Positions 1-11,334 of a stretch of DNA of 11,334 bases are shown piece after piece. This DNA is from a virus (lineage: Duplodnaviria; Heunggongvirae; Uroviricota; Caudoviricetes), in the IMG/VR virus record IMGVR_UViG_2551306674_000009, one strand, 5' to 3'. A model generated the notes under the pieces. It was given only the letters and a program-made list of their open reading frames with translations. It was not told the origin of the DNA and did no database searches. The position numbers and the translations under genes are program-made. Each line of letters starts with the position of its first letter. Positions within the stretch are counted from its first letter, which is position 1.

Positions 1-200
1 TGTCAGTTATCATCTTCGGTTACGGTTATCGGCAGAACGCCCTGCCGCTGACAAGAGCTTATTTGCCTGACCAATCTACTTCACATGATAGATAACTATC
101 ATTTATAACATTTCATTGATTAGCCTTTATTTTTCATTGCGTTACAAATAACAGCCCTGTCAAAAACAGCGAAATTAACTACACCATTAACTACACCGTT

Positions 201-240
201 TCACGAACAATATCGAACAACCACGAACAAAGATCAACAC
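201..240 (+). repeat. Four tandem 10-bp units (tcacgaacaa / tatcgaacaa / ccacgaacaa / agatcaacac), consensus NNACGAACAA
   Basis: Read directly; 10-bp helical phasing; same motif recurs at 9431-9460 and, inverted, at 513-526. Confidence 0.6.
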
Positions 241-330
241 GCTTTAACCGTTATCATTTTCCGGCTATCCGTTATAAAGCTGGTGGATGTTCCCCGATAT
301 GGGGATCCCCACCTACCGGAATTTTTGCCA

Positions 331-580
331 GGTTAAATGTTAACCGCTGCCCTGTTAACATTTTTACCAAAAAGGTAGTTAACATTTTTTGCACGTAACC
401 AGACGAATCATAAAGACAAAATCAACAACAACGCTTCATCAGGCAGTTAACATGTTAACTACTACGAAACGGTAATTTTTTCTCTGCGTGAGAGGGGGCG
501 CGGTGTCCAGCTTGTTCGTTGTTCGTAGCTAACCACTCCCCCCCATACCGGATTTTTTTTCCGGTTAACAGTTAATCAGG
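331..580. promoter_or_regulatory. Cluster of GTTAAC(A)-containing motifs including a perfect 16-bp palindrome AGTTAACATGTTAACT (446-461)
   Basis: At least six TGTTAAC-type motifs within 250 bp (331-345, 352-366, 378-391, 446-461, 561-577) plus hairpins ccccgatatgggg (289-301) and accgga-T8-ccggt (547-565). Confidence 0.35.
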
Positions 581-662
581 CTGGTGGGCTTTACCTGTTC
601 GGTAGGTGTTATGATTATCGTAATACCTTTCCCCCAATGGGGTAAAAGCATCAACCGTAACG

Positions 663-1080
663 GTAATCGTTATGGTTGCCTTGATGATCTGCGTGGTGAT
701 TATCATCACCCAAAATCTGGGTGTTACTCTTACTACCCAAACTACGGGTAGTTTCCGTAGTTTCATAGTCGAGTTGCAGATCTGCAACTCCCCCATCAAC
801 CACAGGCGAATTTCCGCCTTCGGTCATTCCTTAATCATCTGCGTAATCATAATGATTATTCAGCCAGCGCAATTTTGCGCTTTGCTTTAAGTTCAACCAG
901 TTACCGCCAGCTTCCCCCAATGGGGGATTGTGGAATAATCAACGGTTTAGGCCTTAATCATCTGCGTAAACATAAGTAATCATAATGATCATTCAGCCAG
1001 CTCAATTTTGAGCTTTGCTTTAAGTTCAGCGAGTTGCCGCCAGCTTCCTCAAATTGAGGTTTCCGAAAATATCAGCGGGT
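663..1080. repeat. Tandem structured repeat units (~125 bp: 829-952 and 953-1080, plus a diverged copy 663-828), each with three hairpin/palindrome modules
   Basis: Units B and C align end to end; paired substitutions keep the stems intact (agcgcaattttgcgct vs agctcaattttgagct; cccccaatggggg vs cctcaaattgagg). Unit A has its own hairpins (aaactacgg-N7-ccgtagttt; gagttgcagatctgcaactc). Confidence 0.6.
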
Positions 1081-1214
1081 TAGCGATTAAGCTGACCATT
1101 AATTAAACTGCGAAAATTTCGTAGTTTGTGACTGTCTTTCAGGCAGCTTGTTAACAGTCCTCAGAAGCGAGGGATGTAGCCACCCATTTTGGGGCCGTCG
1201 GGAATATCAACCAG

Positions 1215-1496
1215 TTACCGCCGCAACCGCTCCGGCTTCTTCCAGTGGTACGTTATTTTCTCCTTCTCCCGATACATCTCCACGCGGCGACGGTAGGCCA
1301 GCAACTCAAGAACTCTGGTTCGTATGTTGCGCATATCCACGCCATTAAGTTCTATACCATCACGGCGCATCACCTCAGCAACAACACGCGCATAGTTTTC
1401 GGCTGTCACGCTGTCCGGCTGCGTGGCCTGTTCGTCAGCCTGCTGGCTGATTCCGGCGACGCGGCGGATTAATCCCAGTAGTTCGGCTTCTGTCAT
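1215..1496 (-). CDS. Hypothetical protein (93 aa)
   Basis: ORF with GGGGG Shine-Dalgarno 4 nt before the ATG; begins immediately outside the cosQ side of the cos site at 1531. No recognisable family. Confidence 0.45.
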   Translation of the reverse strand: MTEAELLGLIRRVAGISQQADEQATQPDSVTAENYARVVAEVMRRDGIELNGVDMRNIRTRVLELLAYRRRVEMYREKEKITYHWKKPERLRR

Positions 1497-1530
1497 TGTG
1501 CCCCCATCGCTCTGATAGTCTGGTGTCGTC

Positions 1531-1735
1531 GGGTCCTTCCTGGAATTATGGCCCGTTACGGGGCGGCGACCTCGCGGATTTTATCTGTTTATGAAAATTT
1601 TCTGGCAAAAGTCAGATCCGTTCTTCTTCTCTGTAACAGATTGTTTAACAATGAAAACATTAAAAAAAGAAAGGATCTGACACGAGGCATTTTAGCCAGA
1701 AAATGCCATTATCAGATCCTTTCTCATTTTTGTTC
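1531..1735 (+). other. Lambda-type cos site (cosQ-like, cosN 1561-1572, cosB with three R-like elements)
   Basis: Exact lambda cohesive-end 12-mer GGGCGGCGACCT at 1561-1572, followed by cgcggattttatctgtttatgaaaatttt (compare lambda CGCGGGTTTTCGCTATTTATGAAAATTTT); R-like elements at 1614-1626 (+), 1667-1686 (inverted) and 1714-1725 (+), core cAGATCC(g/t)TTCT. Confidence 0.75.
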
Positions 1736-1751
1736 AATAATTGCGCTGCGG

Positions 1752-2294
1752 TTACTCACGTTTCTTCTGTAGCAACTTTTCCGGTACGTTTCCGGTTGTT
1801 TCGGCCAGGTAATCAGCCAGTATCTGCGGAAGGTTGTCGGCAACTCTGGCACTGGCATTACAGGCTTTAACCACTTCCCTTTTAAGCCCATCCAGCATGG
1901 CGGGGGTAATCTGTGGGAAGCTCCTTTGCATCGTAAGCGGTAGGCTGTCCATGATTGAAGAAATCTGACTCGCCAGTTTTGAAAGCGCGTACATGCAAAA
2001 CTCTGTATCAATTACGTCACCGCGATCGCGCTCGTTTTTAAGTTCCTGCGCCTCCGCCTGGGCGGTCAGTAATCTGATCCTGACTCGTAAGAGTTCATCA
2101 TCATCAATCTCGCCTTTGTCGTTTGTAACCTGGTTAATTACATTGCTTACCCGATTGTCTATCACGCTGGCAACATCGTAAAAAGCCTCGCGTCCTTTAC
2201 GTTCAACGGGAGTCACTCCCCACTTGTCGAACGCTGTCGCACTTACACGGCAGCTTTTCGCCATGTTTTTTTTGTTCATCAGGTGCGATTTCAT
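1752..2294 (-). CDS. terS: Terminase small subunit, lambda Nu1-like
   Basis: C-terminal two thirds align closely with lambda Nu1 (LTAQAEAQELKNERDRGDVIDTEFCMYALSKLASQISSIMDSLPLTMQRSFP vs LTRAQADAQELKNARDSAEVVETAFCTFVLSRIAGEIASILDGLPLSVQRRFP); N-terminal DNA-binding region diverged. Start set at the second ATG (MKSHL) because it has a GGGGA SD; the ORF track begins 12 nt upstream at 2306. Confidence 0.85.
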   Translation of the reverse strand: MKSHLMNKKNMAKSCRVSATAFDKWGVTPVERKGREAFYDVASVIDNRVSNVINQVTNDKGEIDDDELLRVRIRLLTAQAEAQELKNERDRGDVIDTEFCMYALSKLASQISSIMDSLPLTMQRSFPQITPAMLDGLKREVVKACNASARVADNLPQILADYLAETTGNVPEKLLQKKRE

Positions 2295-2423
2295 CAATAT
2301 CCCCACTTAAGTAATGTTTCAGGTTGGTGTATTGGTTTTATCTTTCCCTTTTTATTCATAGAGATAGAGCGAACAACAAAACCACCACCAGCACCCGAAA
2401 AAGGCTCATAAATAGTGAAAACG

Positions 2424-2470
2424 CGCGAGGTCGCCGCCCCGTAACGGGTCCATATGCCGGAAAGGACCCG
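2424..2470 (-). other. Second cosN-containing repeat (cosQ-like + cosN + start of cosB), inverted relative to 1531-1577
   Basis: Reverse complement of GGGCGGCGACCT at 2428-2439; on the minus strand reads cgggtcctttccggcatatggacccgttacg|GGGCGGCGACCT|CGCGCGTTTTCACTATTTATGA, closely matching the remembered lambda right-end/left-end junction. No R-like elements between it and terS. Confidence 0.7.
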
Positions 2471-2494
2471 TAAAAAAAGCCGGATTTCTCCGGC
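2471..2494 (-). terminator. Rho-independent terminator after the head operon
   Basis: Minus strand: gccggagaaatccggc followed by TTTTTTT, directly after the stop of the 137-aa gene. Confidence 0.7.
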
Positions 2495-2499
2495 CTGTC

Positions 2500-2913
2500 T
2501 CAGATGGTTTTCAGTATGCGATCGATGTCGCCGTCATCGCCCGGGTTTCTGCCATCGTATGCCATGCCAGCTGATACGGCTTGCGGGCTGTGCATGTCCA
2601 TAAAGTTTTCAAAGGCTGCGGTAAGCTCCGGCGCAACCCTCGGACGTTCCTGCTCTATGGTCATGCTAAGGATGCTTTTAGCCGTACCAACATCGATACA
2701 AGGCACGTTTGCCATTGCACGTAACAGCGGCTGATAGTCGCCAGATTCATCAAGCGCCATAATCGCATCAGCGCGCGGCTTGTCCTGCTCTTCCAGTTTG
2801 TTAAGTTGATATATGGCCTCGTAGGTTGATAACCCTCTGTCAGCCATTGCCCGCGCTTCGGCTTTAAATTTACTCGCCAGCGGTAGCGTCATGATGCTTT
2901 CATTCGTTGCCAT
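2500..2913 (-). CDS. Hypothetical protein (137 aa), last gene of the head operon
   Basis: ORF with AGGGGG SD; sits after the gpD-like gene and before a terminator. No confident family assignment. Confidence 0.55.
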   Translation of the reverse strand: MATNESIMTLPLASKFKAEARAMADRGLSTYEAIYQLNKLEEQDKPRADAIMALDESGDYQPLLRAMANVPCIDVGTAKSILSMTIEQERPRVAPELTAAFENFMDMHSPQAVSAGMAYDGRNPGDDGDIDRILKTI

Positions 2914-2925
2914 CGTTCCCCCTGC

Positions 2926-3261
2926 TTATCGCGCCAGCGGCTGAACGGATACGCCAGAACCAGCAAAGGCGGCGCATTTTTTCGCGTCAGTGTCGGCGCT
3001 TTCAGGCCAGTTTACGGCGGCGATATTAAATATCCCCGTCTTGTAACACTGTGCTGATTTCTGCGTCGACGTGTCCACGGGGTACGAGGTCAGATAAACA
3101 GCCTTGCCAGATTCCTGACCATCCCACGCCTTAAACTCGCCATTGTCCGCCAGCATCAGCGGGGTAAATTCCTGAATAACGCCAGCATCAGCGGCAAAAT
3201 GTACCAGCGTCGTGGATACCTGCTGGCTGCCTGCAAATAACTCAATGTATGGAGTGTCCAT
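2926..3261 (-). CDS. Head decoration protein, lambda gpD-like
   Basis: 111 aa; aligns with lambda gpD (TPLMLADNGEFKAWDG vs TPLMLDTSSRKLVAWDG; KKCAAFAGSGVSV vs KRTAFAGTAISIV); GGGGG SD. Confidence 0.85.
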   Translation of the reverse strand: MDTPYIELFAGSQQVSTTLVHFAADAGVIQEFTPLMLADNGEFKAWDGQESGKAVYLTSYPVDTSTQKSAQCYKTGIFNIAAVNWPESADTDAKKCAAFAGSGVSVQPLAR

Positions 3262-3272
3262 AGAATCCCCCG

Positions 3273-4328
3273 TTAAGCAATTTTGACAGTAACAAATTTG
3301 CGAATATCTGCCGGAACCGGCTGCGGTGCGCTGTGCGTCTGCACGTACTCAATCGCCGGATCGCCGTCCTCAATCCAGTTTTTCGGGTAGTACATGTTTT
3401 GCGTTGCCTTCGTTCTTACTGCGTCCTGATCCATAATCGCACCATAGGCCACCAGCCCTTTATTGTTGGTGTTGCCCAGGACCAGCAAATCAGGTTCAAG
3501 GAAATATTTTTCTGTGCCGTCGCTGTCGGCGTATTTGCCGGAATAGACGATAAGGGCAATATCGCCCAGATAGCCTTTAAAGCTCACCACTTCGCCCAGG
3601 TTTTTACAGGCCAGTTCGGCGGCGGATTCTGAACCACGGGAAAGATCGTACAGCTCACGGAATTTTTTAAAGCTGCGTAACGTGCGCCATACCTCAGCGC
3701 CCATAATCATGACGTTTGCGGGGCAACCAGCCTGATCAGCATAAAGCTCGATGTCATAGATTGGATCGTGCATCTCTTTATCCTGCTCGGACCATTTTTT
3801 ACCCTTGGCCTGCTCTATGATGCAGTTTTCCGGTATTTTCCAGTCTATTTCATAGCGTTCTATGCCTTCGCCCTCAATAATGTTTTTTCCGGTCGTTATC
3901 GCATTCACCGCCAGCCATTCCACGCGCGCTTTAATGGCGTTTACCTGGCGGCGCATGTTGCCAGTAATCAGGCGCATACGTCGGTAGGTAGGGTCGTTAA
4001 GCTGTGCCGGATCTTCTCCAGCCATGCGCATGATGGTTTTTGTTGGATCGATTTCGTGCTTTGGCTTCATGTAGCCAGGTTTAATCGTGCTGGTTTCGTA
4101 TCCTTTATCGCGCTGTACCTGGCTGCCAACCATAGGCGAACAAAACGCCGACATGGTGACTTCTTCAATGTCCAGGGTATCCAGCATGATGTTTTGGGTG
4201 CTGAATGTCGCCACGTTCGGGAAAAACAGCGTGATAAACAGCGGACTGAATTTAAATTCCGCAATATCCCCGCGATTCAGGTACGCAAAAAGCTGGTTAG
4301 TGTTAAGTGCCGTTGCTTTGCCTGCCAT
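3273..4328 (-). CDS. Major capsid protein, lambda gpE-like
   Basis: 351 aa; conserved blocks versus lambda gpE (FKFSPLF, PGYMKPKHEIDP, DPTYRRMRLI, YPKNWIEDGDPAIEY...SAP). Confidence 0.9.
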   Translation of the reverse strand: MAGKATALNTNQLFAYLNRGDIAEFKFSPLFITLFFPNVATFSTQNIMLDTLDIEEVTMSAFCSPMVGSQVQRDKGYETSTIKPGYMKPKHEIDPTKTIMRMAGEDPAQLNDPTYRRMRLITGNMRRQVNAIKARVEWLAVNAITTGKNIIEGEGIERYEIDWKIPENCIIEQAKGKKWSEQDKEMHDPIYDIELYADQAGCPANVMIMGAEVWRTLRSFKKFRELYDLSRGSESAAELACKNLGEVVSFKGYLGDIALIVYSGKYADSDGTEKYFLEPDLLVLGNTNNKGLVAYGAIMDQDAVRTKATQNMYYPKNWIEDGDPAIEYVQTHSAPQPVPADIRKFVTVKIA

Positions 4329-4534
4329 TATTCACCCCCATAATTTTTATGCATCCCAAGCGCCGCAAGTAAATAAGAGCGCACAAGTGAACCTATCGAC
4401 GGCTCCGGCGTCATCAGCGGATCCAGTCCAGCCGCTACGCCAGCCTCATAGTTTTTTTTGTGGCGCTGCTTGAGCACCTCCACGATTTCGGGGCTTATGT
4501 ACACCGAAACACCGCCTTTTTTCTCTTCTGCCAT
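4328..4534 (-). CDS. Small protein (68 aa), first gene of the head operon
   Basis: Stop overlaps the capsid start (TAATG); AGAGGA SD; beta-strand/helix pattern (VSVYISPEIVEVLKQ) could be RHH-like. Function unknown. Confidence 0.5.
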   Translation of the reverse strand: MAEEKKGGVSVYISPEIVEVLKQRHKKNYEAGVAAGLDPLMTPEPSIGSLVRSYLLAALGMHKNYGGE

Positions 4535-4567
4535 AGTCAGAAATTCCTCTTTGACTTAAAAAATCAC

Positions 4568-4618
4568 AACTGGATGTTCATCCAGTTATGATTATAATCA
4601 TGATTGCATTTTGCGCAA
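4568..4618 (-). promoter_or_regulatory. Head-operon promoter with SOS-box-like operator
   Basis: Minus strand -35 TTGCGC (4613-4618), 16-bp spacer, -10 TATAAT (4591-4596); palindrome aACTGGATGAACATCCAGTt (4568-4587) just downstream of the -10 has the CTG-N10-CAG LexA-box geometry. Confidence 0.45.
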
Positions 4619-4696
4619 TAAAATTGAGTTGTGTTGCAAATTATGAAATGGTTTACAGCAACAGTAGTCACCATGCTGTTAACCTCGTAAGCAAAA

Positions 4697-4735
4697 GCCC
4701 GATAAGCTTCCTCCTGTACTTATCGGGCTTTTTTT
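4697..4735 (+). terminator. Rho-independent terminator (plus strand; weak on minus)
   Basis: gcccgataag-N12-cttatcgggc followed by TTTTTTT on the plus strand. Confidence 0.6.
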
Positions 4736-4741
4736 GGGCGC

Positions 4742-4763
4742 AAAAAAGCCGGATTGCTCCGGC
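4742..4763 (-). terminator. Rho-independent terminator after the 74-aa gene
   Basis: Minus strand: gccggagcaatccggc followed by TTTTTT; same sequence family as the terminators at 2471-2494 and 5105-5128. Confidence 0.7.
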
Positions 4764-4783
4764 TATGTGTGCTGTGTGCTGGC

Positions 4784-5008
4784 TCAGTCTCTGATCTCTT
4801 TCAGAAATTCTATCAATGCATCTATCTGTTCAGGATTTACCGCCAGCATTTCACCGGATAGAGCACATCTCACAAAACCATGCTGATCCTTTTCAATCAG
4901 TGCGCCCGTCTCCAGGAATGCGCGGTAATCATTGATGCTCATCGTCTCCATGTTGTCAGCATGGTATTTATCACGCTGTTTTAATATCTCATCAAATTTC
5001 ATCGGCAT
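4784..5008 (-). CDS. Hypothetical protein (74 aa), stand-alone moron-like gene
   Basis: AGGAAA SD; terminator upstream (5105-5128) and downstream (4742-4763), so apparently its own transcription unit between the replication and head modules. Confidence 0.55.
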   Translation of the reverse strand: MPMKFDEILKQRDKYHADNMETMSINDYRAFLETGALIEKDQHGFVRCALSGEMLAVNPEQIDALIEFLKEIRD

Positions 5009-5104
5009 TGTTTTTTTCCTCTGTTGTGTCTGTTTGTTTCAGATAGTAACTATGCCTGACCGTGACGAAAACCCGGTAATGCGCCATACCGTTTCAACTG
5101 GTGC

Positions 5105-5128
5105 AATAAAAGCCGGATTTCTCCGGCT
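5105..5128 (-). terminator. Rho-independent terminator ending the replication/regulatory operon
   Basis: Minus strand: agccggagaaatccggct followed by TTTTATT, directly after the PerC-like gene stop. Confidence 0.65.
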
Positions 5129-5134
5129 GTTTGA

Positions 5135-5407
5135 TTAGCTGTCCTGGTAATTGCGCCATATTTCATCACCAGCACCATCTATACCCATTTCGGCATAAGT
5201 GCGATCGACTGCCTTTTTCAGGTCTCCGAAATTATCCGGCGGCTCCGGTGCCCTCTGTGCCTTCCTTGAACATTCCAGCCGTCGCATCGTGATGTGATGC
5301 CGTTCCTTGTCTGTCTCCACCAGCTGCATGACTTCACCCCATCGCGCCGCCGCCCTCCGGTAAAAGCCTTTCGCCTCCAGTTCCTCCGCTATGCGGTCAT
5401 GTACCAT
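5135..5407 (-). CDS. PerC-family transcriptional regulator-like protein
   Basis: Motif AEELEAKGFYRRAAARWGEVM resembles the PerC/Pch signature as I recall it; start placed at the internal ATG (MVHDRI) with a GAGGGGG SD rather than the longer ORF-track start at 5527. Confidence 0.55.
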   Translation of the reverse strand: MVHDRIAEELEAKGFYRRAAARWGEVMQLVETDKERHHITMRRLECSRKAQRAPEPPDNFGDLKKAVDRTYAEMGIDGAGDEIWRNYQDS

Positions 5408-5417
5408 CGTCACCCCC

Positions 5418-5713
5418 TCAGAACGAAATATCATCACCGTAAGGGTCATCGCCTCCCGCTGGTGGCTGATTACCCTGTGTGCCTGTGGTTTTGCGTCTGT
5501 TCCCGCCAGGACGGGCAGCACGGGCACTGATTACACTGTCTGCGATAACCTGCCAGCCCTGCCGCGTTTCGCCGTTCTGGCCTGTCCGTCCTGTGCCTGG
5601 CTGCATGGCAAAGATACCGCCATACGCGCCAGCGTCATCGGTGTGCCCTTGCTGGTCTGTTTTACCTGCGGGTCGTCCACCAGCCGCCCGTAAGCGGCTA
5701 TCTGTGCTGTCAT
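5418..5713 (-). pseudogene. SSB-like remnant spanning two reading frames
   Basis: Frame from 5713: MTAQIAAYGRLVDDPQVKQTSKGTPMTLARMAVSL (SSB N-terminus-like); a second frame ending at 5418 is Gly/Gln-rich and ends DDPYGDDISF (SSB acidic tail-like). Start overlaps the upstream stop (ATGA) and the second frame ends 10 nt before the next gene. About 98 codons in total, too short for a full OB fold. Confidence 0.35.
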
Positions 5714-5961
5714 GATTCCACCTCTCCGGTTTTAACGTTGATGGTTGTTACCTGTTCCGCTTCGGCAATCTCCCGTTCTGTCAGCGTGGCAAAGTTTGCC
5801 GCCGCCGTGGTCATGAATGCGCTTATCAGGTCGGGATGTTCCTTCGCGTATCCTTCCCGCGTGTGGCGGTCTATCGTTCTGATTGCCACCTTTAAGGTGT
5901 GCTCAGTCATGTCTAACGCTTTATATTTTGGCTCTGTTCTGTCTCTGCGTTTTTGGGTCAT
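5710..5961 (-). CDS. Hypothetical protein (~83 aa)
   Basis: First ATG with GAGAGG SD at 5961 (ORF-track start at 5991 is GTG and lies inside the iterons); stop overlaps the SSB-like start. Confidence 0.45.
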   Translation of the reverse strand: MTQKRRDRTEPKYKALDMTEHTLKVAIRTIDRHTREGYAKEHPDLISAFMTTAAANFATLTEREIAEAEQVTTINVKTGEVES

Positions 5962-5969
5962 TTCTCGCA

Positions 5970-6165
5970 ACCTCTCACTTTTTCGCCTCACTTTTTCAAG
6001 CGTCTCACTTCGTCGCAGTTGGGATTTTCGGTTTTTCTATGTGTGTGTTTCATAAGTATTTTTTTACCCCTCACTTTTGAGGATGTATACAGGTCGAAAA
6101 GTGAGGGAGAGCGGGCTAATTTTGGCCCTCTTTCTATCCCCCTCGCTTTTGCTCCTCACTTTTAT
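5970..6165. repeat. Putative replication origin: CTCACTTTT iterons flanking an AT-rich stretch
   Basis: Copies at 5974-5982, 5987-5995, 6004-6010 (degenerate), 6070-6078, 6097-6105 (inverted), 6142-6150 (degenerate), 6155-6163; AT-rich 6020-6068; immediately 3' of the rep gene. Confidence 0.65.
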
Positions 6166-7562
6166 AGCGGCGCTACATCATCCCCATCGATACGAATAAC
6201 CCCATCTTTTTCCAGCTTGTACAGCCAGCGCCGGAAGTTTTTCATTTCATACCCCAGCTTTTTCATGTCATCACGTAACAGCGGGATCGTGCACTTGTCG
6301 CCGTTCTGTGTGCGTGAACGGATGCACCCCCATAGCGCGGTATGGTTTTCCGTCTTGTTCCCTGCCTCCTCGATGCGCTCCAGTTCAACAGGAGGGCGCG
6401 GATCATCCACCACCACCAGCGACGTGATTAATTCACCGTCAGCGTCGGTAAAAAGCTCCACCACGCGTAAGTCATATGCGGCTTCTTTGAGTTCCTCCGC
6501 GTCCTTCATTTTGGTGCATGAGATAACCAGCGCTTCGCTTCCTGCGTCCTCCCTGCGTATCCGGTATTCAGCATCCAGCGAAGCACGAAATGCACTGGAA
6601 CCGCGCGCGCCTTTCGTCTCATCCTTGCCGGAATGGTGAACCACCAGCACCGTGGCCCCTGTGCGTCGTTTCAGTTCGTCACAACCACGGATAAACGCCC
6701 CCATATCACGGGAATCATTTTCATCATTCCCACCAAAGCAACGCGCCAGCGTATCCAGAATAATCATGCGTACAGGTTTACCCGTTTCCCGCTCCACCTG
6801 ACGGGCAGCGATAACCATTTCATCAACATCAAGCGGGGCAGCCGGAAAGATGGGGCGGTTTACCAGATACAGATTTTTCACCTGCTCATCGTGCACAACC
6901 TCCCAGGCTTTTACACGACGCGGAACACCTATACCGCCTTCACCAACCACATAGAGAACCGCACCATGTGCAACCCTGCGGCCTCCCCACTGGCGACCAG
7001 TGGCAACATGGCACGCCCACGATCCGGCAAGGAATGATTTATAGGACCCGCTAGCCCCGTATATGCTGCATAGCGATACCGCCGGAATAATCCCCTTAAC
7101 CACGTAATCCAGTTGCGTGTCGTATCCGGTAGATCCAACGCTCATCGGTAGCGTGGTTTTTCGCTGGTGGTTTTTTTCTTCCGCCGGCTCTTTCCCGCGC
7201 ACCCGTTCCAGGTATTCGCGCCAGTTCTCCCGCATATGGCTGTGCATCCCTTCGGGGTAATAATTCGCATCAGTTACACCCGCCGCCGCCAGCTTGTGCG
7301 CAATGGCATTAATATTTGATGGCCTGATGTGGCCTGCCTTGTACAGCCGGACACAATAGCGCCCCTCGTCGATGATTCTCAGGTCTGCCAGTTCATCCAG
7401 TTGATCATCAGCCAGCACAACGGGAGGCACATTATCGCCAGCCAGTCGCCCGTCCTGTTCCTGCCACTGTTTCGCATGTGCCCAGGCATCACTACCCGCA
7501 AAAATAATGACTTCGGTCATCTTGTCGTAAGGCTGTTTTTTTAAGTTCGGTGCGCTTTTCAT
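6162..7562 (-). CDS. Replication initiator/helicase, RepA-like (AAA_25-type RecA-fold ATPase)
   Basis: 466 aa; Walker A GASGSYKS, Walker B-like MIILDTLARCF, VLVVHHSGKD; C-terminal winged-helix-like region; ATGA overlap with the upstream ORF. Confidence 0.8.
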   Translation of the reverse strand: MKSAPNLKKQPYDKMTEVIIFAGSDAWAHAKQWQEQDGRLAGDNVPPVVLADDQLDELADLRIIDEGRYCVRLYKAGHIRPSNINAIAHKLAAAGVTDANYYPEGMHSHMRENWREYLERVRGKEPAEEKNHQRKTTLPMSVGSTGYDTQLDYVVKGIIPAVSLCSIYGASGSYKSFLAGSWACHVATGRQWGGRRVAHGAVLYVVGEGGIGVPRRVKAWEVVHDEQVKNLYLVNRPIFPAAPLDVDEMVIAARQVERETGKPVRMIILDTLARCFGGNDENDSRDMGAFIRGCDELKRRTGATVLVVHHSGKDETKGARGSSAFRASLDAEYRIRREDAGSEALVISCTKMKDAEELKEAAYDLRVVELFTDADGELITSLVVVDDPRPPVELERIEEAGNKTENHTALWGCIRSRTQNGDKCTIPLLRDDMKKLGYEMKNFRRWLYKLEKDGVIRIDGDDVAPL

Positions 7563-7858
7563 TTCTTGCCCCTGAATCCGTTAATCATGGTTTTCAGCTT
7601 CTGGATGTTTGCCCGTGCCCTGGCGTTGCTGGTGGGCACGTTATGCGGCGCGGTCTGTACCAGAGAAAAATCACGCCGGAACTGATAAACAGGCATCACG
7701 CAATCATATTCGTAACCTTCACGGCGGTAAGTTACGCACCGTCCCGCCACGCCCTTAATCATTACCGTGCCGCCGTACTGGTCGCGGTAAATATCACCGC
7801 GCGTAAATTTAGGGTTAGTGTTGCCACTGGCAGTTAAGCCAGAATATTTAAGTTTCAT
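7559..7858 (-). CDS. Hypothetical protein (99 aa)
   Basis: ORF with GGAGA SD, translationally coupled to rep. Confidence 0.5.
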   Translation of the reverse strand: MKLKYSGLTASGNTNPKFTRGDIYRDQYGGTVMIKGVAGRCVTYRREGYEYDCVMPVYQFRRDFSLVQTAPHNVPTSNARARANIQKLKTMINGFRGKK

Positions 7859-7863
7859 TATTT

Positions 7864-8097
7864 TTATTCTCCGGTGTGCTGTTCGTTATATCTGTCGTGC
7901 AATAAGTCTATTTCTTGCAGTTCCATTATTACAGGCTCAAGAAGCGTTATTAATGCCGTGGCAATTCTTGATTTTTGTTTGTCGCGTTCATTGTCGCCAA
8001 GTGTTTCAAGCCATATGCGTAATATTTCCATCATGCTTTCACTGTGAGAAAGTGCAAGAAATGCGCGGTCTATTGTTTCGAGGTAAATATCACGCAT
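7864..8097 (-). CDS. Hypothetical protein (77 aa)
   Basis: ATG start with GAGGA SD; operon context. Confidence 0.5.
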   Translation of the reverse strand: MRDIYLETIDRAFLALSHSESMMEILRIWLETLGDNERDKQKSRIATALITLLEPVIMELQEIDLLHDRYNEQHTGE

Positions 8098-8335
8098 GGC
8101 TTACATCCTCAGGAAATTTTCTTCTGTAACGCGCCTCTGCCACATATTCCGCATAATCGGCGGCGATATTCAGTACATCAAGCCCCGTTGATTTATATTC
8201 TCTCGTGGAAAGTAAGAAAAAAGCCGCTCTAATAAGTTCTGGCATTGACGAAAGCGCATCAGCCGCATCATCAGGAACGCCGGAAAATTCCTGTTTCAGG
8301 GAATTAAAACGATCATCACGCATAACCCCCCCCAT
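8090..8335 (-). CDS. Hypothetical protein (~81 aa)
   Basis: First ATG at 8335; a G8 tract lies at the junction with the upstream gene; overlaps the next start by 8 nt. Confidence 0.45.
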   Translation of the reverse strand: MGGVMRDDRFNSLKQEFSGVPDDAADALSSMPELIRAAFFLLSTREYKSTGLDVLNIAADYAEYVAEARYRRKFPEDVSHA

Positions 8336-8555
8336 TTTCACAATCAGCAATCAGGATAGCTTTGGCCTCATTCAGAGCCATATCAGCACTAAGTTGCATA
8401 ACCGCCAGCGAATGAGGAACGAAAGCCCCGGCATATTCTGTTTCACTGGTGGCGTGCTTATGCGCCCTGTCAGCAATAACAGAAATATCAATAAGCGCGT
8501 GCATCAGCGTAGTGAGCGCGGCGGCGGTTGCGTCCGGTGTGGTTTTATTGTGCAT
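8316..8555 (-). CDS. Hypothetical protein (~79 aa)
   Basis: ATG at 8555 with AGGGGGA SD (ORF-track start at 8597 is GTG). Confidence 0.45.
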   Translation of the reverse strand: MHNKTTPDATAAALTTLMHALIDISVIADRAHKHATSETEYAGAFVPHSLAVMQLSADMALNEAKAILIADCENGGGYA

Positions 8556-8745
8556 AGGTTTCCCCCTGGCGAATACGGGCGGCGAATACAGCAACACAAC
8601 CTGACGGGCAACGGTTACGCGCTTCGCGTTCCGTCCAGGCGGTTACGTGGATGATTTGAGATTCTCCGGCACTCAGTGCCAGAAAACGCCACACAAAGGC
8701 CGTTTGTGTGTGTACAAGGTGTGGGGTATGATTTACGGCAACCAT
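8545..8745 (-). CDS. Hypothetical protein (66 aa), first gene of the replication operon
   Basis: ATG with GAGGAG SD at optimal spacing; preceded by a structured leader and the divergent promoter region. Confidence 0.55.
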   Translation of the reverse strand: MVAVNHTPHLVHTQTAFVWRFLALSAGESQIIHVTAWTEREARNRCPSGCVAVFAARIRQGETYAQ

Positions 8746-8819
8746 AACGGCTCCTCGTTTACGTTGTTGGTTAGAAGCCCGTTGGTGTTCATAGCGCCAG
8801 CGGGCTTTGCTTTTGTGGT

Positions 8820-8880
8820 GTCATTGGTATACATTGTCACCGTAAGGCCATTATTATACTCGAGGTATACAATGTCAACC
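8820..8880. promoter_or_regulatory. Divergent promoter/operator region between the RHH gene and the replication operon
   Basis: Two direct copies of GGTATACAWTGTCA(A)CC (8826-8840, 8864-8879), each overlapping a -35-like hexamer; plus strand TTGTCA-N15-TATACT, minus strand TTGACA-N14-TATAAT. Confidence 0.5.
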
Positions 8881-9048
8881 AATGACAACAAAAAGGAAAG
8901 GTTTTCCGTACAGCTTCGTCTTGATGCTGACTTATTCGAACGCTTAAGCATCGCCATGAAAGAAGATGGCGATGATAACCGCTCAGGATGGATAAAAAGG
9001 CTTTTGCGCCGTGAGTTGGATAAACGCGGCATAGAATCAAAAGAATAA
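8872..9048 (+). CDS. Ribbon-helix-helix (Arc/MetJ/CopG-like) DNA-binding protein, candidate repressor
   Basis: 58 aa: KERFSVQLRLDADLFERLSIAMKEDGDDNRSGWIKRLLRREL fits the beta-alphaA-alphaB RHH pattern; GAGGT SD; divergent from the replication operon. Confidence 0.7.
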   Translation: MSTNDNKKERFSVQLRLDADLFERLSIAMKEDGDDNRSGWIKRLLRRELDKRGIESKE

Positions 9049-9105
9049 TTACTATCAGCGCCGTGGCGTGAGGTACTACGGCGCATTGCTTTACAGGGCA
9101 GTATC

Positions 9106-9333
9106 ATGACCAACAACACACTATTACCAATACAAGACACGCAAACCCAAGATGATGAAATCATCCGGCAAAGGCAGTCAGAAGCCTGCGCCAGAGTTGA
9201 GGAAGAACTAACCAGAACAAAAATACCACCACCAGCGCCGCGCTTAATGCCACCAGAAAAATTTGCCCTTGAAGATTTTGTCGAGAAATACCCACGGCGG
9301 TTAAAAGCCACTAAAAACCGACCGCCTGGCTGA
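9106..9333 (+). CDS. Hypothetical protein (75 aa), possible second gene after the RHH gene
   Basis: ORF only; weak SD; no recognisable family. Confidence 0.25.
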   Translation: MTNNTLLPIQDTQTQDDEIIRQRQSEACARVEEELTRTKIPPPAPRLMPPEKFALEDFVEKYPRRLKATKNRPPG

Positions 9334-9430
9334 TAGCCTTGTCCACCAGCTACGGCGGTGCTAAGATTGAAAGCTGCATAAGTCATGAAAATAAACTCCT
9401 TAGCGGTGCATACGCGCCGCTTCTTTTCTT

Positions 9431-9460
9431 CACGAACAACCGCGAACAAGTACAAACAAA
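9431..9460 (+). repeat. Three tandem 10-bp units (tcacgaacaa / ccgcgaacaa / gtacaaacaa)
   Basis: Same NNACGAACAA motif and 10-bp phasing as 201-240; lies just 3' of alpA. Confidence 0.55.
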
Positions 9461-9491
9461 AACACGGACGGAATTTAAAGAATGAATATTC

Positions 9492-9686
9492 TTAATTGAC
9501 GCGTTCGCGGTTTTTGACCCAGGCGACAACCTCAGACTTAACCCAGCCAACCGAACGACCGCCAAGACTGATACGGGAGGGAAAGCGGCCTTGTTTTTCC
9601 ATCTCGTAACGAGTTGTGCGGCAAACGCCTGTTAGCTCTCTGCATTCTTTTTCGCGGATTACACGATCTTCATTTATTTCGCGCAT
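9492..9686 (-). CDS. alpA: AlpA-family phage transcriptional regulator / excisionase-like protein
   Basis: 64 aa with AlpA-type motif (CRTTRYEMEKQGRFPSRISLGGRSVGWVKSEVVAWV); adjacent to and co-oriented with the integrase. Confidence 0.75.
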   Translation of the reverse strand: MREINEDRVIREKECRELTGVCRTTRYEMEKQGRFPSRISLGGRSVGWVKSEVVAWVKNRERVN

Positions 9687-10020
9687 AAAAAGCCCTACAT
9701 AAAATTACGTATAGAAATTTTTGTTTCGCTGTGGATATACGGAAAGAGATTACTTCTTAGCTTTTCTTACCTCTTAAATTGAAGGCGTAACCTTGCCAAA
9801 AGCTATGCTCGCCAAGGTTCGCAAGGGTTCGTTGTTGTTCATAAAATCGTTGCACACCAGGAAAGACAATTCAACATTAAAATTCCCTCTACAGTGAGGA
9901 ATAATTAAAAAAACAAATTAAAACAGTCACATAAAAGCATACACATTGAAATAAAGGAAAATTTTAAAACTCAAGTAGACAATCGCTGTTTTCAAATTTT
10001 TTCAATACTTGACACATATA

Positions 10021-10054
10021 AATCGTCGATATTTGCCGATATTCGACGATTTAT
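10021..10054. promoter_or_regulatory. Inverted repeat AAATCGTCGATAT-N6-ATATTCGACGATTT next to a TTGACA hexamer
   Basis: Near-perfect 13-bp arms in the int-alpA intergenic region; candidate operator. Confidence 0.3.
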
Positions 10055-10095
10055 TTTAGAGGGCCATTTTTCGCAAGAAAAACAGCCGTAATTTG

Positions 10096-11334
10096 TCAAG
10101 AATTTTGAGAGTAAATTCGCGGGGTCATAACAACGATTTTTTCATCATTGTTCTGGAGAAGCTCGAGACGCTCAACCCATAGATTAAGAGCGTCACGTTT
10201 TGCATCGAGATAACGGGAGTGATTATAGACTCGTTGCATTCCTGGCAACTGGTGCGCGGTTAGCTGCTCCACTACATGAGGATCCACGCCTAAATCGTTC
10301 AGCATCGTTGTAAACGTGTGCCGGATGTCGTGCAACGTCCAGGGGGCTTGATTAATACGTCTGTGTGCCGTTCTTCCGTACTCTGATACGGATGATTGCC
10401 CTTTCAGTTCTCCGAGCAATAATCCCGTGTGCCTGTTCTGCTCCACCAGCTTCGTTACGAACGGCAAGATCGCTTCCGGTATTGGCCTGAATATTGCTAC
10501 CTTCGTTTTGCTGTGTTCTTTCGGCACGGTCCAGAGCATTTCTTTAAAATCCCATTCCTGGAGCTCAGAGCGTCTTAGCTCAGTGGTACGACATCCGAAG
10601 ACAATCAGGAGGCGAATCAGGGCGCTGTAGTACGGTGGGTAAATTTTTTCATCCAGGGCGCGGAGTAATTCCCCAAGCTCCTTGTTTGTTAGTACGCGCT
10701 CGCTTATTTCTGCTTTTTTCCCAACATCACCTACAACCATATCATCTAGAACGTTGGTAATTGCGTAGCGTCGTTTGCGGCAGTACTTAAGCGCCTGCTT
10801 GCATACCTGTAACAAAAATCCTGCTGATACCGGATTACGCTTAGCAAGCTGATCAAAACAGGTCAGCCAGTGGCGTAGCTCGCATTTTTCCAGCGGCATA
10901 GCACCAATCTGGCTGATTATGTGTGTATTGATCCGGCTCTTCAGAGATTCGTAGTCTGTGCGCTTTTCCTTCGCGTACGATTCAAGCCAGTAAGTGAGCG
11001 CTTCCTTAACCGTAACAGGTGATAACGCTTCCTGTACGGTGTGATTAAGCTCATGGCGTGGATTTTTCCCCTCAGCAAGCCAGGCGCGACACTGCGCCGC
11101 TTTTTCCCTGGCTGCTTTCAGGCTCAAATCAGGATAATTTCCCAGCCTCAGACGTTCAGGGGATACCTTCCTGCCTGTTCCGGCCCTGTAAGTGAAATAC
11201 CAGGTTAACAGGCCATTGGTTGAATGCCTTACGCTAAGGTTGCCACCATCATTAAAAAAGGTGTTTTTTGTGGTTGGTGATCCGCTTAATTTTCGTAAAA
11301 GAGTGTCGCTAAGTCTATGAATTGCCCTGCTCAT
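10096..11334 (-). CDS. int: Tyrosine integrase, P4-type
   Basis: 412 aa; N-terminal arm-binding-like region, C-terminal catalytic residues (HDIRHTF ... VYNHSRY). Start codon is at the last bases of the window, so the true 5' end could lie beyond the edge. Confidence 0.85.
   Translation of the reverse strand: MSRAIHRLSDTLLRKLSGSPTTKNTFFNDGGNLSVRHSTNGLLTWYFTYRAGTGRKVSPERLRLGNYPDLSLKAAREKAAQCRAWLAEGKNPRHELNHTVQEALSPVTVKEALTYWLESYAKEKRTDYESLKSRINTHIISQIGAMPLEKCELRHWLTCFDQLAKRNPVSAGFLLQVCKQALKYCRKRRYAITNVLDDMVVGDVGKKAEISERVLTNKELGELLRALDEKIYPPYYSALIRLLIVFGCRTTELRRSELQEWDFKEMLWTVPKEHSKTKVAIFRPIPEAILPFVTKLVEQNRHTGLLLGELKGQSSVSEYGRTAHRRINQAPWTLHDIRHTFTTMLNDLGVDPHVVEQLTAHQLPGMQRVYNHSRYLDAKRDALNLWVERLELLQNNDEKIVVMTPRIYSQNS

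Follow-up and report, generated by a model that had tools for sequence, protein, structure and literature searches.

We analysed an 11,334-nt stretch of DNA (the window, by which we mean the whole of that stretch) that IMG/VR records as the Caudoviricetes virus IMGVR_UViG_2551306674_000009, and found it to be, almost certainly, a complete classical Gram-negative phage-inducible chromosomal island (PICI) of the EcCICFT073 type, ~10.8 kb long and inserted beside clpS. The island extends over ~546-11334 with its genes of substance all on the minus strand, and it brings together what characterizes such islands, namely an integrase, AlpA, a replicase, a capsid gene and TerS with cos, in an element of the ~10-15 kb class with no tail, lysis, terL, portal or connector genes. 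The features of main concern, a cassette of head-related genes and the packaging module next to it, are given here in the order of transcription, together with the left flank (aa, amino acids):

4328..4534, minus strand: 68-aa protein, c1498 homologue (phrog_3255, E=8.5e-46); its stop overlaps the capsid start codon
3273..4328, minus strand: lambda gpE-family major capsid protein, 351 aa, c1499 homologue (Phage_cap_E, E=4e-51; phrog_29, E=2.5e-107)
2926..3261, minus strand: lambda gpD-family head decoration (cement) protein, 111 aa, c1500 homologue (HDPD, E=2e-17; phrog_49, E=5.6e-27)
2500..2913, minus strand: shortened Nu3-type scaffolding protein, 137 aa, c1501 homologue (phrog_53 positions 494-567 of 583, E=1.6e-8)
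2428-2439, minus strand: second cosN, also exact, upstream of terS and in its orientation, as in lambda
1752..2306, minus strand: Nu1-family TerS, 184 aa (Phage_Nu1, E=3e-23, over residues 68-152 only; probable start ~2294)
1561-1572, plus strand: exact lambda-type cosN, GGGCGGCGACCT, then a cosB-like region to 1730 (lambda left-end alignment)
1..545, no strand: host chromosomal DNA upstream of clpS, matched in 5425/5426 E. coli genomes at the window's left end

The capsid protein aligns with PDB entry 3BQW (E=1.7e-229), the 350 residues of the printed alignment showing no more than scattered substitutions; that entry is entitled 'putative capsid protein of prophage', and its sequence matches the capsid protein encoded at the same position in E. 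coli CFT073. Identity reaches 95% with the CFT073 protein and 43% with lambda gpE, to which the island protein is colinear over residues 20-351, at full length, and the closest homologue in phage records is only 46% identical. The decoration protein, also 95% identical to its CFT073 counterpart, matches PDB 1TD0 and related gpD/SHP entries (E=1e-13), and its gene adjoins the capsid gene in each island inspected. Reading a triangulation number from the capsid sequence was rejected, as no T-number sequence determinant is established for gpE-type proteins.

The 137-aa protein is a shortened Nu3-type scaffold that keeps the C-terminal tail. Its match is to the last part of phrog_53, the PHROG family of the lambda C/Nu3 protease-scaffold, and in pairwise alignment its residues 49-131 are 37% identical to residues 115-192 of phage 21 Nu3 (E=4e-11), with a second, weaker match to an earlier segment of the same protein. 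A tblastn search of 50,697 phage records returned only the C-terminal Nu3/gpC of phage 21-like lambdoids (E=3e-5, 36-39% identity). In a multiple alignment the island protein shares the Nu3 tail (FE.FM..HSP.AV) and has 'IMAL.EA...' repeats ahead of it, of which, by our reading of the alignment, there would be two units in the island protein versus three in phage 21 Nu3. The protein is 98% identical to its CFT073 counterpart, and phage Nu3 measures 200-201 aa. None of the PICI papers searched was found to mention a c1501-type protein as a Nu3-type scaffold. An earlier note on this DNA, made from the sequence alone, had counted two small open reading frames with the capsid and decoration genes; both exist, but the 137-aa gene lies outside the interval that the note had marked out and is this scaffold. 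Judged by the families of its products, the cassette amounts to a shell kit of scaffold, shell protein and cement.

The rest of a head is missing from the island. Pfam and PHROG searches gave zero matches to terL, portal, protease, head-tail connector, tail or lysis families among the window's open reading frames, which bears out the earlier note's statement that E-like capsid and D-like decoration genes stand here without terL, portal or protease; the island must therefore take TerL, portal, protease, connectors, tail and lysis functions from a lambdoid helper. In place of the contiguous lambda head module (Nu1-A-W-B-C/Nu3-D-E-FI-FII) there are only TerS, Nu3-like, D and E genes, in reverse transcriptional order. 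The placing of E before D, reversed relative to lambda as the note had said, is real and recurs in 11/11 related islands inspected, and none of these eleven, like the window, has TerL, portal, prohead protease or head-tail adaptor/connector genes.

The missing genes do not lie just outside either, a possibility that the note had left open. In JNEC-KY203 the match to the window's left end begins at the base right after clpS, and the alignment of the DEC5A island starts at window 546; because alignment to related islands starts there, we place the island's left end near that position, with host DNA beyond it. The window's right end is the integrase start codon and thereby the island's other end, and on either side of related islands, at 93-97% nucleotide identity, stand host genes, phoQ/roxA in O55:H7 DEC5A and a split tqsA in JNE181771.

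The TerS protein is 36% identical to lambda Nu1 along its length (E=1e-33), with the C-terminal half well conserved, and its closest phage relative is N15 gp1, at 45% identity. The cosB-like region that follows the cosN at 1561-1572 holds three R-like sites, TCAGATCC(G/T)TTCT, at 1612, 1664 (inverted) and 1712, so that its layout is lambda-like (R3, inverted R2, R1) in a sequence of its own; such a cosB would suit a cognate TerS whose DNA-binding domain has changed. The mature phi80 genome aligns with its base 1 at window 1560-1561. The note had rightly reported TerS and cos and had not mentioned the second cosN copy. The two copies, inverted relative to each other, flank terS and have flanking sequence in common on both sides of cosN, but the copy at 2428 has a divergent cosB rich in GGT/GTT, the lambda-like cosB with three R-like sites being confined to the copy at 1561. 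EcCICFT073 is likewise reported to have cos1 and cos2.

An identity of TerS or of the 137-aa protein with Rpp was considered and rejected, PDB sequence searches with these two and with the 93-aa protein encoded beyond cos having missed the Rpp entries 6HLK and 6HN7. BLASTP of TerS against CFT073 RppA found zero similarity, which indicates that the island uses TerS, not Rpp.

The 68-aa protein has homologues confined to Escherichia and Salmonella and gave no Pfam, NCBIfam or phage tblastn match; NCBIfam has no family for any cassette protein. Its AlphaFold2 model, of modest confidence, consists of two helices (predicted local distance difference test score, 73), and Foldseek found nothing in the PDB with E below 5. 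Two candidate roles were rejected, that of a gpW analogue, as there is no alignment to lambda W, and that of a ribbon-helix-helix regulator suggested by the motif VTVYISPDIVEAL, for which the same two-helix model and Foldseek search offered nothing significant. The protein occurs as two alleles that are 68% identical to each other. The window's allele is identical in the TerS-type islands DEC5A and JNE181771, and the second allele is that of CFT073 (with RppA) and of KY203 (without TerS), a hint that the 68-aa protein co-varies with the packaging-specificity gene.

EcCICFT073, the model cos-type Gram-negative PICI (Fillol-Salom et al. 2018, PMC6092414; 2019, PMC6739421), shares the order of the window island (integrase, alpA, replication genes, PerC, 68-aa, capsid, decoration, 137-aa, cos, 93-aa), and the CFT073 locus itself reads PerC, 68-aa, capsid, decoration, 137-aa, 144-aa and 93-aa genes, adjoining phoQ. 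Both islands have two cos sites and measure ~11 kb, and beside the identities given above the 68-aa proteins are 68% identical. They differ in that EcCICFT073 has RppA (c1503) where the window island has a Nu1-type TerS, and in that the window island has a lambda-like R3/R2/R1 cosB, a RepA/AAA_25 replicase and the clpS site rather than phoQ.

The element is accordingly an ordinary member of a known family. The earlier note had placed the arrangement outside known satellite strategies, and this was mistaken: the 2018 description of EcCICFT073 already listed a putative capsid protein (c1499), a head decoration protein (c1500) and, in its supplement, a 137-aa protein (c1501) (PMC6092414); a capsid gene is present in 21/29 reference Gram-negative PICIs (PMC10111431); 'capsid morphogenesis' is one of the five components at the core of the SatelliteFinder PICI model, and E. 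coli accounts for 97% of the elements that have the full set (PMC10085698); and SaPIbov5 encodes the capsid homologue Ccm (PMC8569155). Capsid-forming PICIs (cf-PICIs; EcCIEDL933, Alqurainy et al., bioRxiv 10.1101/2022.09.08.507074) resemble the window island in their int-alpA-rep backbone and in encoding their own capsid protein, but they also encode TerL, HNH, portal, protease and head-tail connectors, none of which is found here. The EcCIMP1 paper concerns an unrelated PICI in which capsid genes are absent.

Relatives are common. Among 5426 complete E. coli genomes, 598 contain the capsid-decoration pair and 990 contain part of the packaging module, and no genome in the collection matches the island at at least 99% across its length. 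TerS-type relatives occur for example in O55:H7 and O157:H7; DEC5A and JNE181771 are 93-97% identical to the window in nucleotides, either over the island or over the packaging module, TerS included. TerS-type islands differ from the window in their attachment sites (phoQ/roxA, tqsA) and sometimes in having another replication module. Capsid homologues of 51-96% identity were followed to their contigs, which come from Escherichia, Salmonella, Edwardsiella and Serratia. They always lie in islands of ~10-11 kb that run int, alpA, replication genes, E, D, a single small gene and in most cases TerS or Rpp, with terL, portal and protease absent from all of them.

One Salmonella island (GCA_005980655.1, 3292-13000), whose capsid protein shares 51% identity with that of the window and which also has a decoration gene, lies within the tail-gene region of a P2-like prophage and has a 534-aa protein in the TerS position. 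The P2 capsid protein belongs to a different family, and co-assembly of this island's capsid protein with the shell protein of the P2-like helper would be unlikely. In four more distant islands, this one among them, the gene after D is not Nu3-like and encodes 114-145 aa with a Phage_AlpA match, so that the third position of the cassette is variable and the E-D pair constant.

The cassette genes bear the mark of selection. Five E. coli islands in which synonymous divergence (dS) is unsaturated (dS 0.05-0.24) gave ratios of nonsynonymous to synonymous substitution of 0.08-0.19 in the gene for the capsid protein and 0.06-0.18 in that for the decoration protein, both of which are under strong purifying selection; in the scaffold-like gene the ratio was 0.16-0.55. 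The earlier note had proposed a homology search of the capsid protein for its lineage, and this led to a satellite-only clade: in a neighbour-joining tree the context-verified satellite capsid proteins group together, apart from lambda and phage 21 gpE. This agrees with published trees, in which PICI capsid genes separate from others and in which the capsid and TerS proteins of PICIs and cf-PICIs separate almost perfectly (PMC10085698). The cassette proteins and TerS belong to lineages specific to satellites, only 35-46% identical to their phage counterparts. Strong purifying selection together with a satellite-only clade implies that the cassette genes do something.

Published experiments have given that something little visible form. 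Deletion of c1499 or c1500 did not restore plaque formation by lambda, and in transfer by the resident helper a c1499 deletion was ~two-fold lower and a c1500 deletion unchanged (PMC6092414). An island with c1499::cat moved with phi80 at up to 1e6 per ml, the authors finding no phenotype for c1499, and EcCICFT073 particles made by lambda held phage-sized DNA (PMC6092414). When late genes were cloned singly, only c1503 (rppA) blocked lambda. Helper-dependent induction, replication, packaging and high-frequency transfer were shown only for EcCICFT073, the TerS-type islands of IHE3034 and 18098 having moved poorly (PMC6092414). In later engineering work c1498-c1501 (the 'adaptable module') was swapped wholesale for cas9 or melA and the islands were still transduced. 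The cassette is dispensable for laboratory transfer, for which helper heads suffice, an outcome that the earlier note had named among those counting against its own reading.

The strains in which these results were obtained bear on their reading. The sole island-bearing lambda lysogen in the 2018 strain table is EcCICFT073-c1499::cat (PMC6092414), and the other marked island is c1501::tetA, whose marker interrupts the scaffold-like gene; both derivatives were used again in the 2019 paper (PMC6739421). The 2018 and 2019 EcCICFT073 studies do not report particle size for an island with an intact cassette. An intact-cassette derivative, c1504-c1507::cat, exists and is described only as packaged in phage capsids. 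We found no functional study of c1499, or of Nu3 in PICIs, in the literature after 2018-2019.

The best explanation overall, in our judgement, is an EcCICFT073-type PICI that is packaged as a concatemer in helper heads and whose cassette is a working shell kit; we would call it about as likely to prove right as wrong. On this account the island's TerS would bind the island's own cosB, and its Nu1-like C-terminal half would recruit the gpA-type TerL of the helper. DNA would be cut at cosN, and about four units joined in a concatemer (4 x 10.3-11.3 kb = 41-45 kb) would be packaged into helper-sized heads. Islands of the EcCICFT073 kind measure 10.3-11.3 kb, about a quarter of a lambdoid genome of 42-54 kb; P4 and SaPI1, which have small T=4 heads, measure about a third of their helper's genome. 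Four units make a good fit to a lambdoid head, in contrast to the third-size T=4 satellites, and this speaks for packaging of concatemers in full-size heads, as is reported for EcCICFT073.

The E, D and short-Nu3 set would meanwhile assemble on helper portals, either by itself or together with subunits of the helper, and would supply extra or alternative heads of normal size, not small ones. A structural role is supported by a capsid protein that is full length, colinear with gpE and crystallised, and by a third gene that keeps the Nu3 C-terminal tail. In lambda, trimers of the gpD type attach to the shell only once its lattice is expanded and mature; retention of a matched D under purifying selection therefore suggests that the island capsid protein ends up in mature heads and is not only a poison or decoy. 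Any advantage from the cassette would be modest at most, and it is dispensable in the laboratory with lambda, phi80 and the native CFT073 helper. That it supplies or co-builds normal-size heads on helper portals, with a benefit too small or too helper-specific for laboratory assays, is a plausible proposal that still falls somewhat short of probable.

Several points weigh against this explanation. Island E or D protein has been detected in no particle by any experiment. The two-fold effect of deleting c1499 and the nil effect of deleting c1500 mean that any benefit of supply is small in the laboratory, and single expression of island genes other than rppA left lambda unaffected. As terminase docks on the portal, shell identity alone would give no packaging preference, which leaves the selective advantage unexplained. 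The phage-sized DNA was found with an island that lacked the capsid gene, and the argument from a quarter-genome size is indirect.

Among the alternatives, the one that survives best is an extension of the idea in the earlier note, which had supposed that substitution of the shell protein gives small capsids: island E and the shorter scaffold, from an intact cassette, would build small heads on helper portals that take one or two island units and exclude helper DNA. The idea is reasonable, and specialists had already raised it by analogy with Ccm, their own experiments being unsupportive; we consider it unlikely. The precedent is SaPIbov5, which likewise lacks terL, portal and protease and whose Ccm, a homologue of the helper capsid protein with the HK97 fold, does redirect head size (PMC8569155). 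Ccm, however, is ~23% identical to the helper capsid protein, occupies the pentamers only and makes no shells alone, and has a demonstrated size phenotype on phi12 heads, whereas the window protein is a full-length gpE relative, 43-46% identical to lambda-family gpE, with matched decoration and scaffold proteins and no phenotype found. Small heads are also made by PmCI172, a PICI of Pasteurella that has a capsid homologue.

The short scaffold also speaks for smaller heads, with its 137 aa versus the 200-201 aa of phage Nu3 and its retained C-terminal tail. CpmB stands in the same relation to the 80alpha scaffold, and like CpmB of SaPI1 the 137-aa protein is a shorter relative of a helper-type internal scaffold and keeps the C-terminal tail; the difference is that it has no sequence relationship to CpmB or to P4 Sid, the scaffold-type factors of size redirection, and no demonstrated size phenotype, and that the window island adds its own shell protein. 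Moreover, the 2018 and 2019 tests were made with c1499::cat or c1501::tetA islands, in which the cassette was disrupted. Against this, induction of CFT073 gave no band of a PICI monomer, an island without its capsid gene still transfers at up to 1e6 per ml in phage-sized heads, and c1504-c1507::cat, its cassette intact, is described only as in phage capsids. An island of ~11 kb is in addition ~23% of a lambdoid genome, compared with ~35% for T=4 satellites, as estimated from P2/P4 and 80alpha/SaPI1. In EcCICFT073, small capsids by shell substitution are thus unsupported, deletions having had no effect on interference, the packaged DNA being phage-sized and the cassette replaceable, although the islands tested had a disrupted cassette. 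In its broader form, in which an intact cassette builds satellite-specific heads on helper portals, possibly smaller ones, that were missed since the marked derivatives had a broken cassette, the proposal seems to us improbable too. If true, there would be a third way for a satellite to obtain capsids, by providing shell, cement and scaffold itself and borrowing portal, protease and motor.

The island's E, D and scaffold might instead serve interference or defence, by co-assembling with helper or invading lambdoids or by titrating their portal or protease, and so spoil their heads. PICIs in general interfere with their helpers, defences that target assembly are known (PMC10884400, PMC11364771), and 37-46% identity to lambda and phage 21 proteins makes cross-interaction plausible. 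But lambda gained no relief from deletion of c1499 or c1500, rppA alone of the cloned genes blocked it, and a poison would need no matched decoration protein under purifying selection, all of which makes this role quite unlikely.

Still less probable is a back-up function, put forward in PMC10111431, in which the capsid genes replace helper head genes that were interrupted by integration of the island and are mere passengers in chromosomal copies. Two of the traced islands are indeed embedded in helpers, one within the helper capsid gene (island capsid protein 55% identical to that of the window) and one within the helper portal gene (64%), a configuration that had already been described (PMC10111431). 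The window island and most relatives lie at chromosomal sites, however, the relative that interrupts a portal gene still has E and D rather than a portal, and purifying selection is strong in chromosomal copies. An ordinary prophage head module or decaying remnant, with terL, portal and protease just outside the window, can be set aside: its genes do fall in lambda head-gene families, but host DNA to the left, the integrase end to the right and the host-bounded relatives refute it, and the order reversed relative to lambda, the purifying selection and the consistent size and architecture of eleven islands count against it as well.

The remaining features of the EcCICFT073-type island that we favour, again in the order of transcription, are as follows:

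10096..11334, minus strand: tyrosine integrase at the island end (Phage_integrase, E=1.3e-18; Arm-DNA-bind_3, E=5.7e-17)
9492..9686, minus strand: AlpA-family regulator, downstream of int (Phage_AlpA, E=4.7e-16)
6162..7562, minus strand: RepA/AAA_25 replication protein (pri-rep; AAA_25, E=2.4e-43; phrog_2850, E=5.7e-267)
5135..5527, minus strand: PerC-family regulator in a 130-aa open reading frame (PerC, E=1.2e-42; domain at residues 41-129)
1215..1496, minus strand: conserved 93-aa protein beyond cos (phrog_1561, E=2.6e-57)

Transcription runs from int and AlpA through small open reading frames, including one for a DUF4222 protein, to RepA/AAA_25, a broken SSB gene, PerC, the cassette, TerS and the 93-aa gene, the last of which has homologues in the islands of CFT073, DEC5A, JNE181771 and KY203. 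Genes for SSB encode 136-140 aa in related islands; here the gene is apparently broken, with a 60-aa N-terminal fragment of weak SSB match at window 5531-5713. Homologues of PerC in related islands are annotated at ~90 aa (273 nt in DEC5A), and the 40-residue N-terminal extension of the window's open reading frame is probably what is left of the SSB gene, read out of frame.

Between alpA and the replication genes, an accessory region (8545-9455) contains overlapping open reading frames on both strands; one on the plus strand encodes 133 aa, of which the C-terminal part (ERFSVQLRLDADLFERLS...) resembles a ribbon-helix-helix regulator with no Pfam match. Non-coding DNA between the island's left end and the 93-aa gene (679-1090) contains a 115-nt direct repeat (843-957 and 976-1090, 82% identical) and three copies of a 24-nt motif, CCTTAATCATCTGCGTAATCATAA, at 679, 829 and 952; these repeats could be an attachment-site arm or binding sites. 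A tRNA search of the window found none, so there is no tRNA attachment site inside it. Neither Pfam nor PHROG matched Sid, Psu, Delta, Ash/epsilon or an alpha primase-helicase among the window's scanned open reading frames, and the element accordingly falls outside the P4-like satellites.

Since between about a tenth and a fifth of complete E. coli genomes contain a member of the family, which is also in use as an engineering chassis, the window island adds little as a discovery. What it brings into focus is a puzzle, in that matched capsid, cement and scaffold genes are maintained under strong selection across several enterobacterial genera and yet have no laboratory phenotype. The question is now easier to test, given that the third gene encodes a shortened Nu3-type scaffold and that the marked islands in the published assays had a broken cassette.

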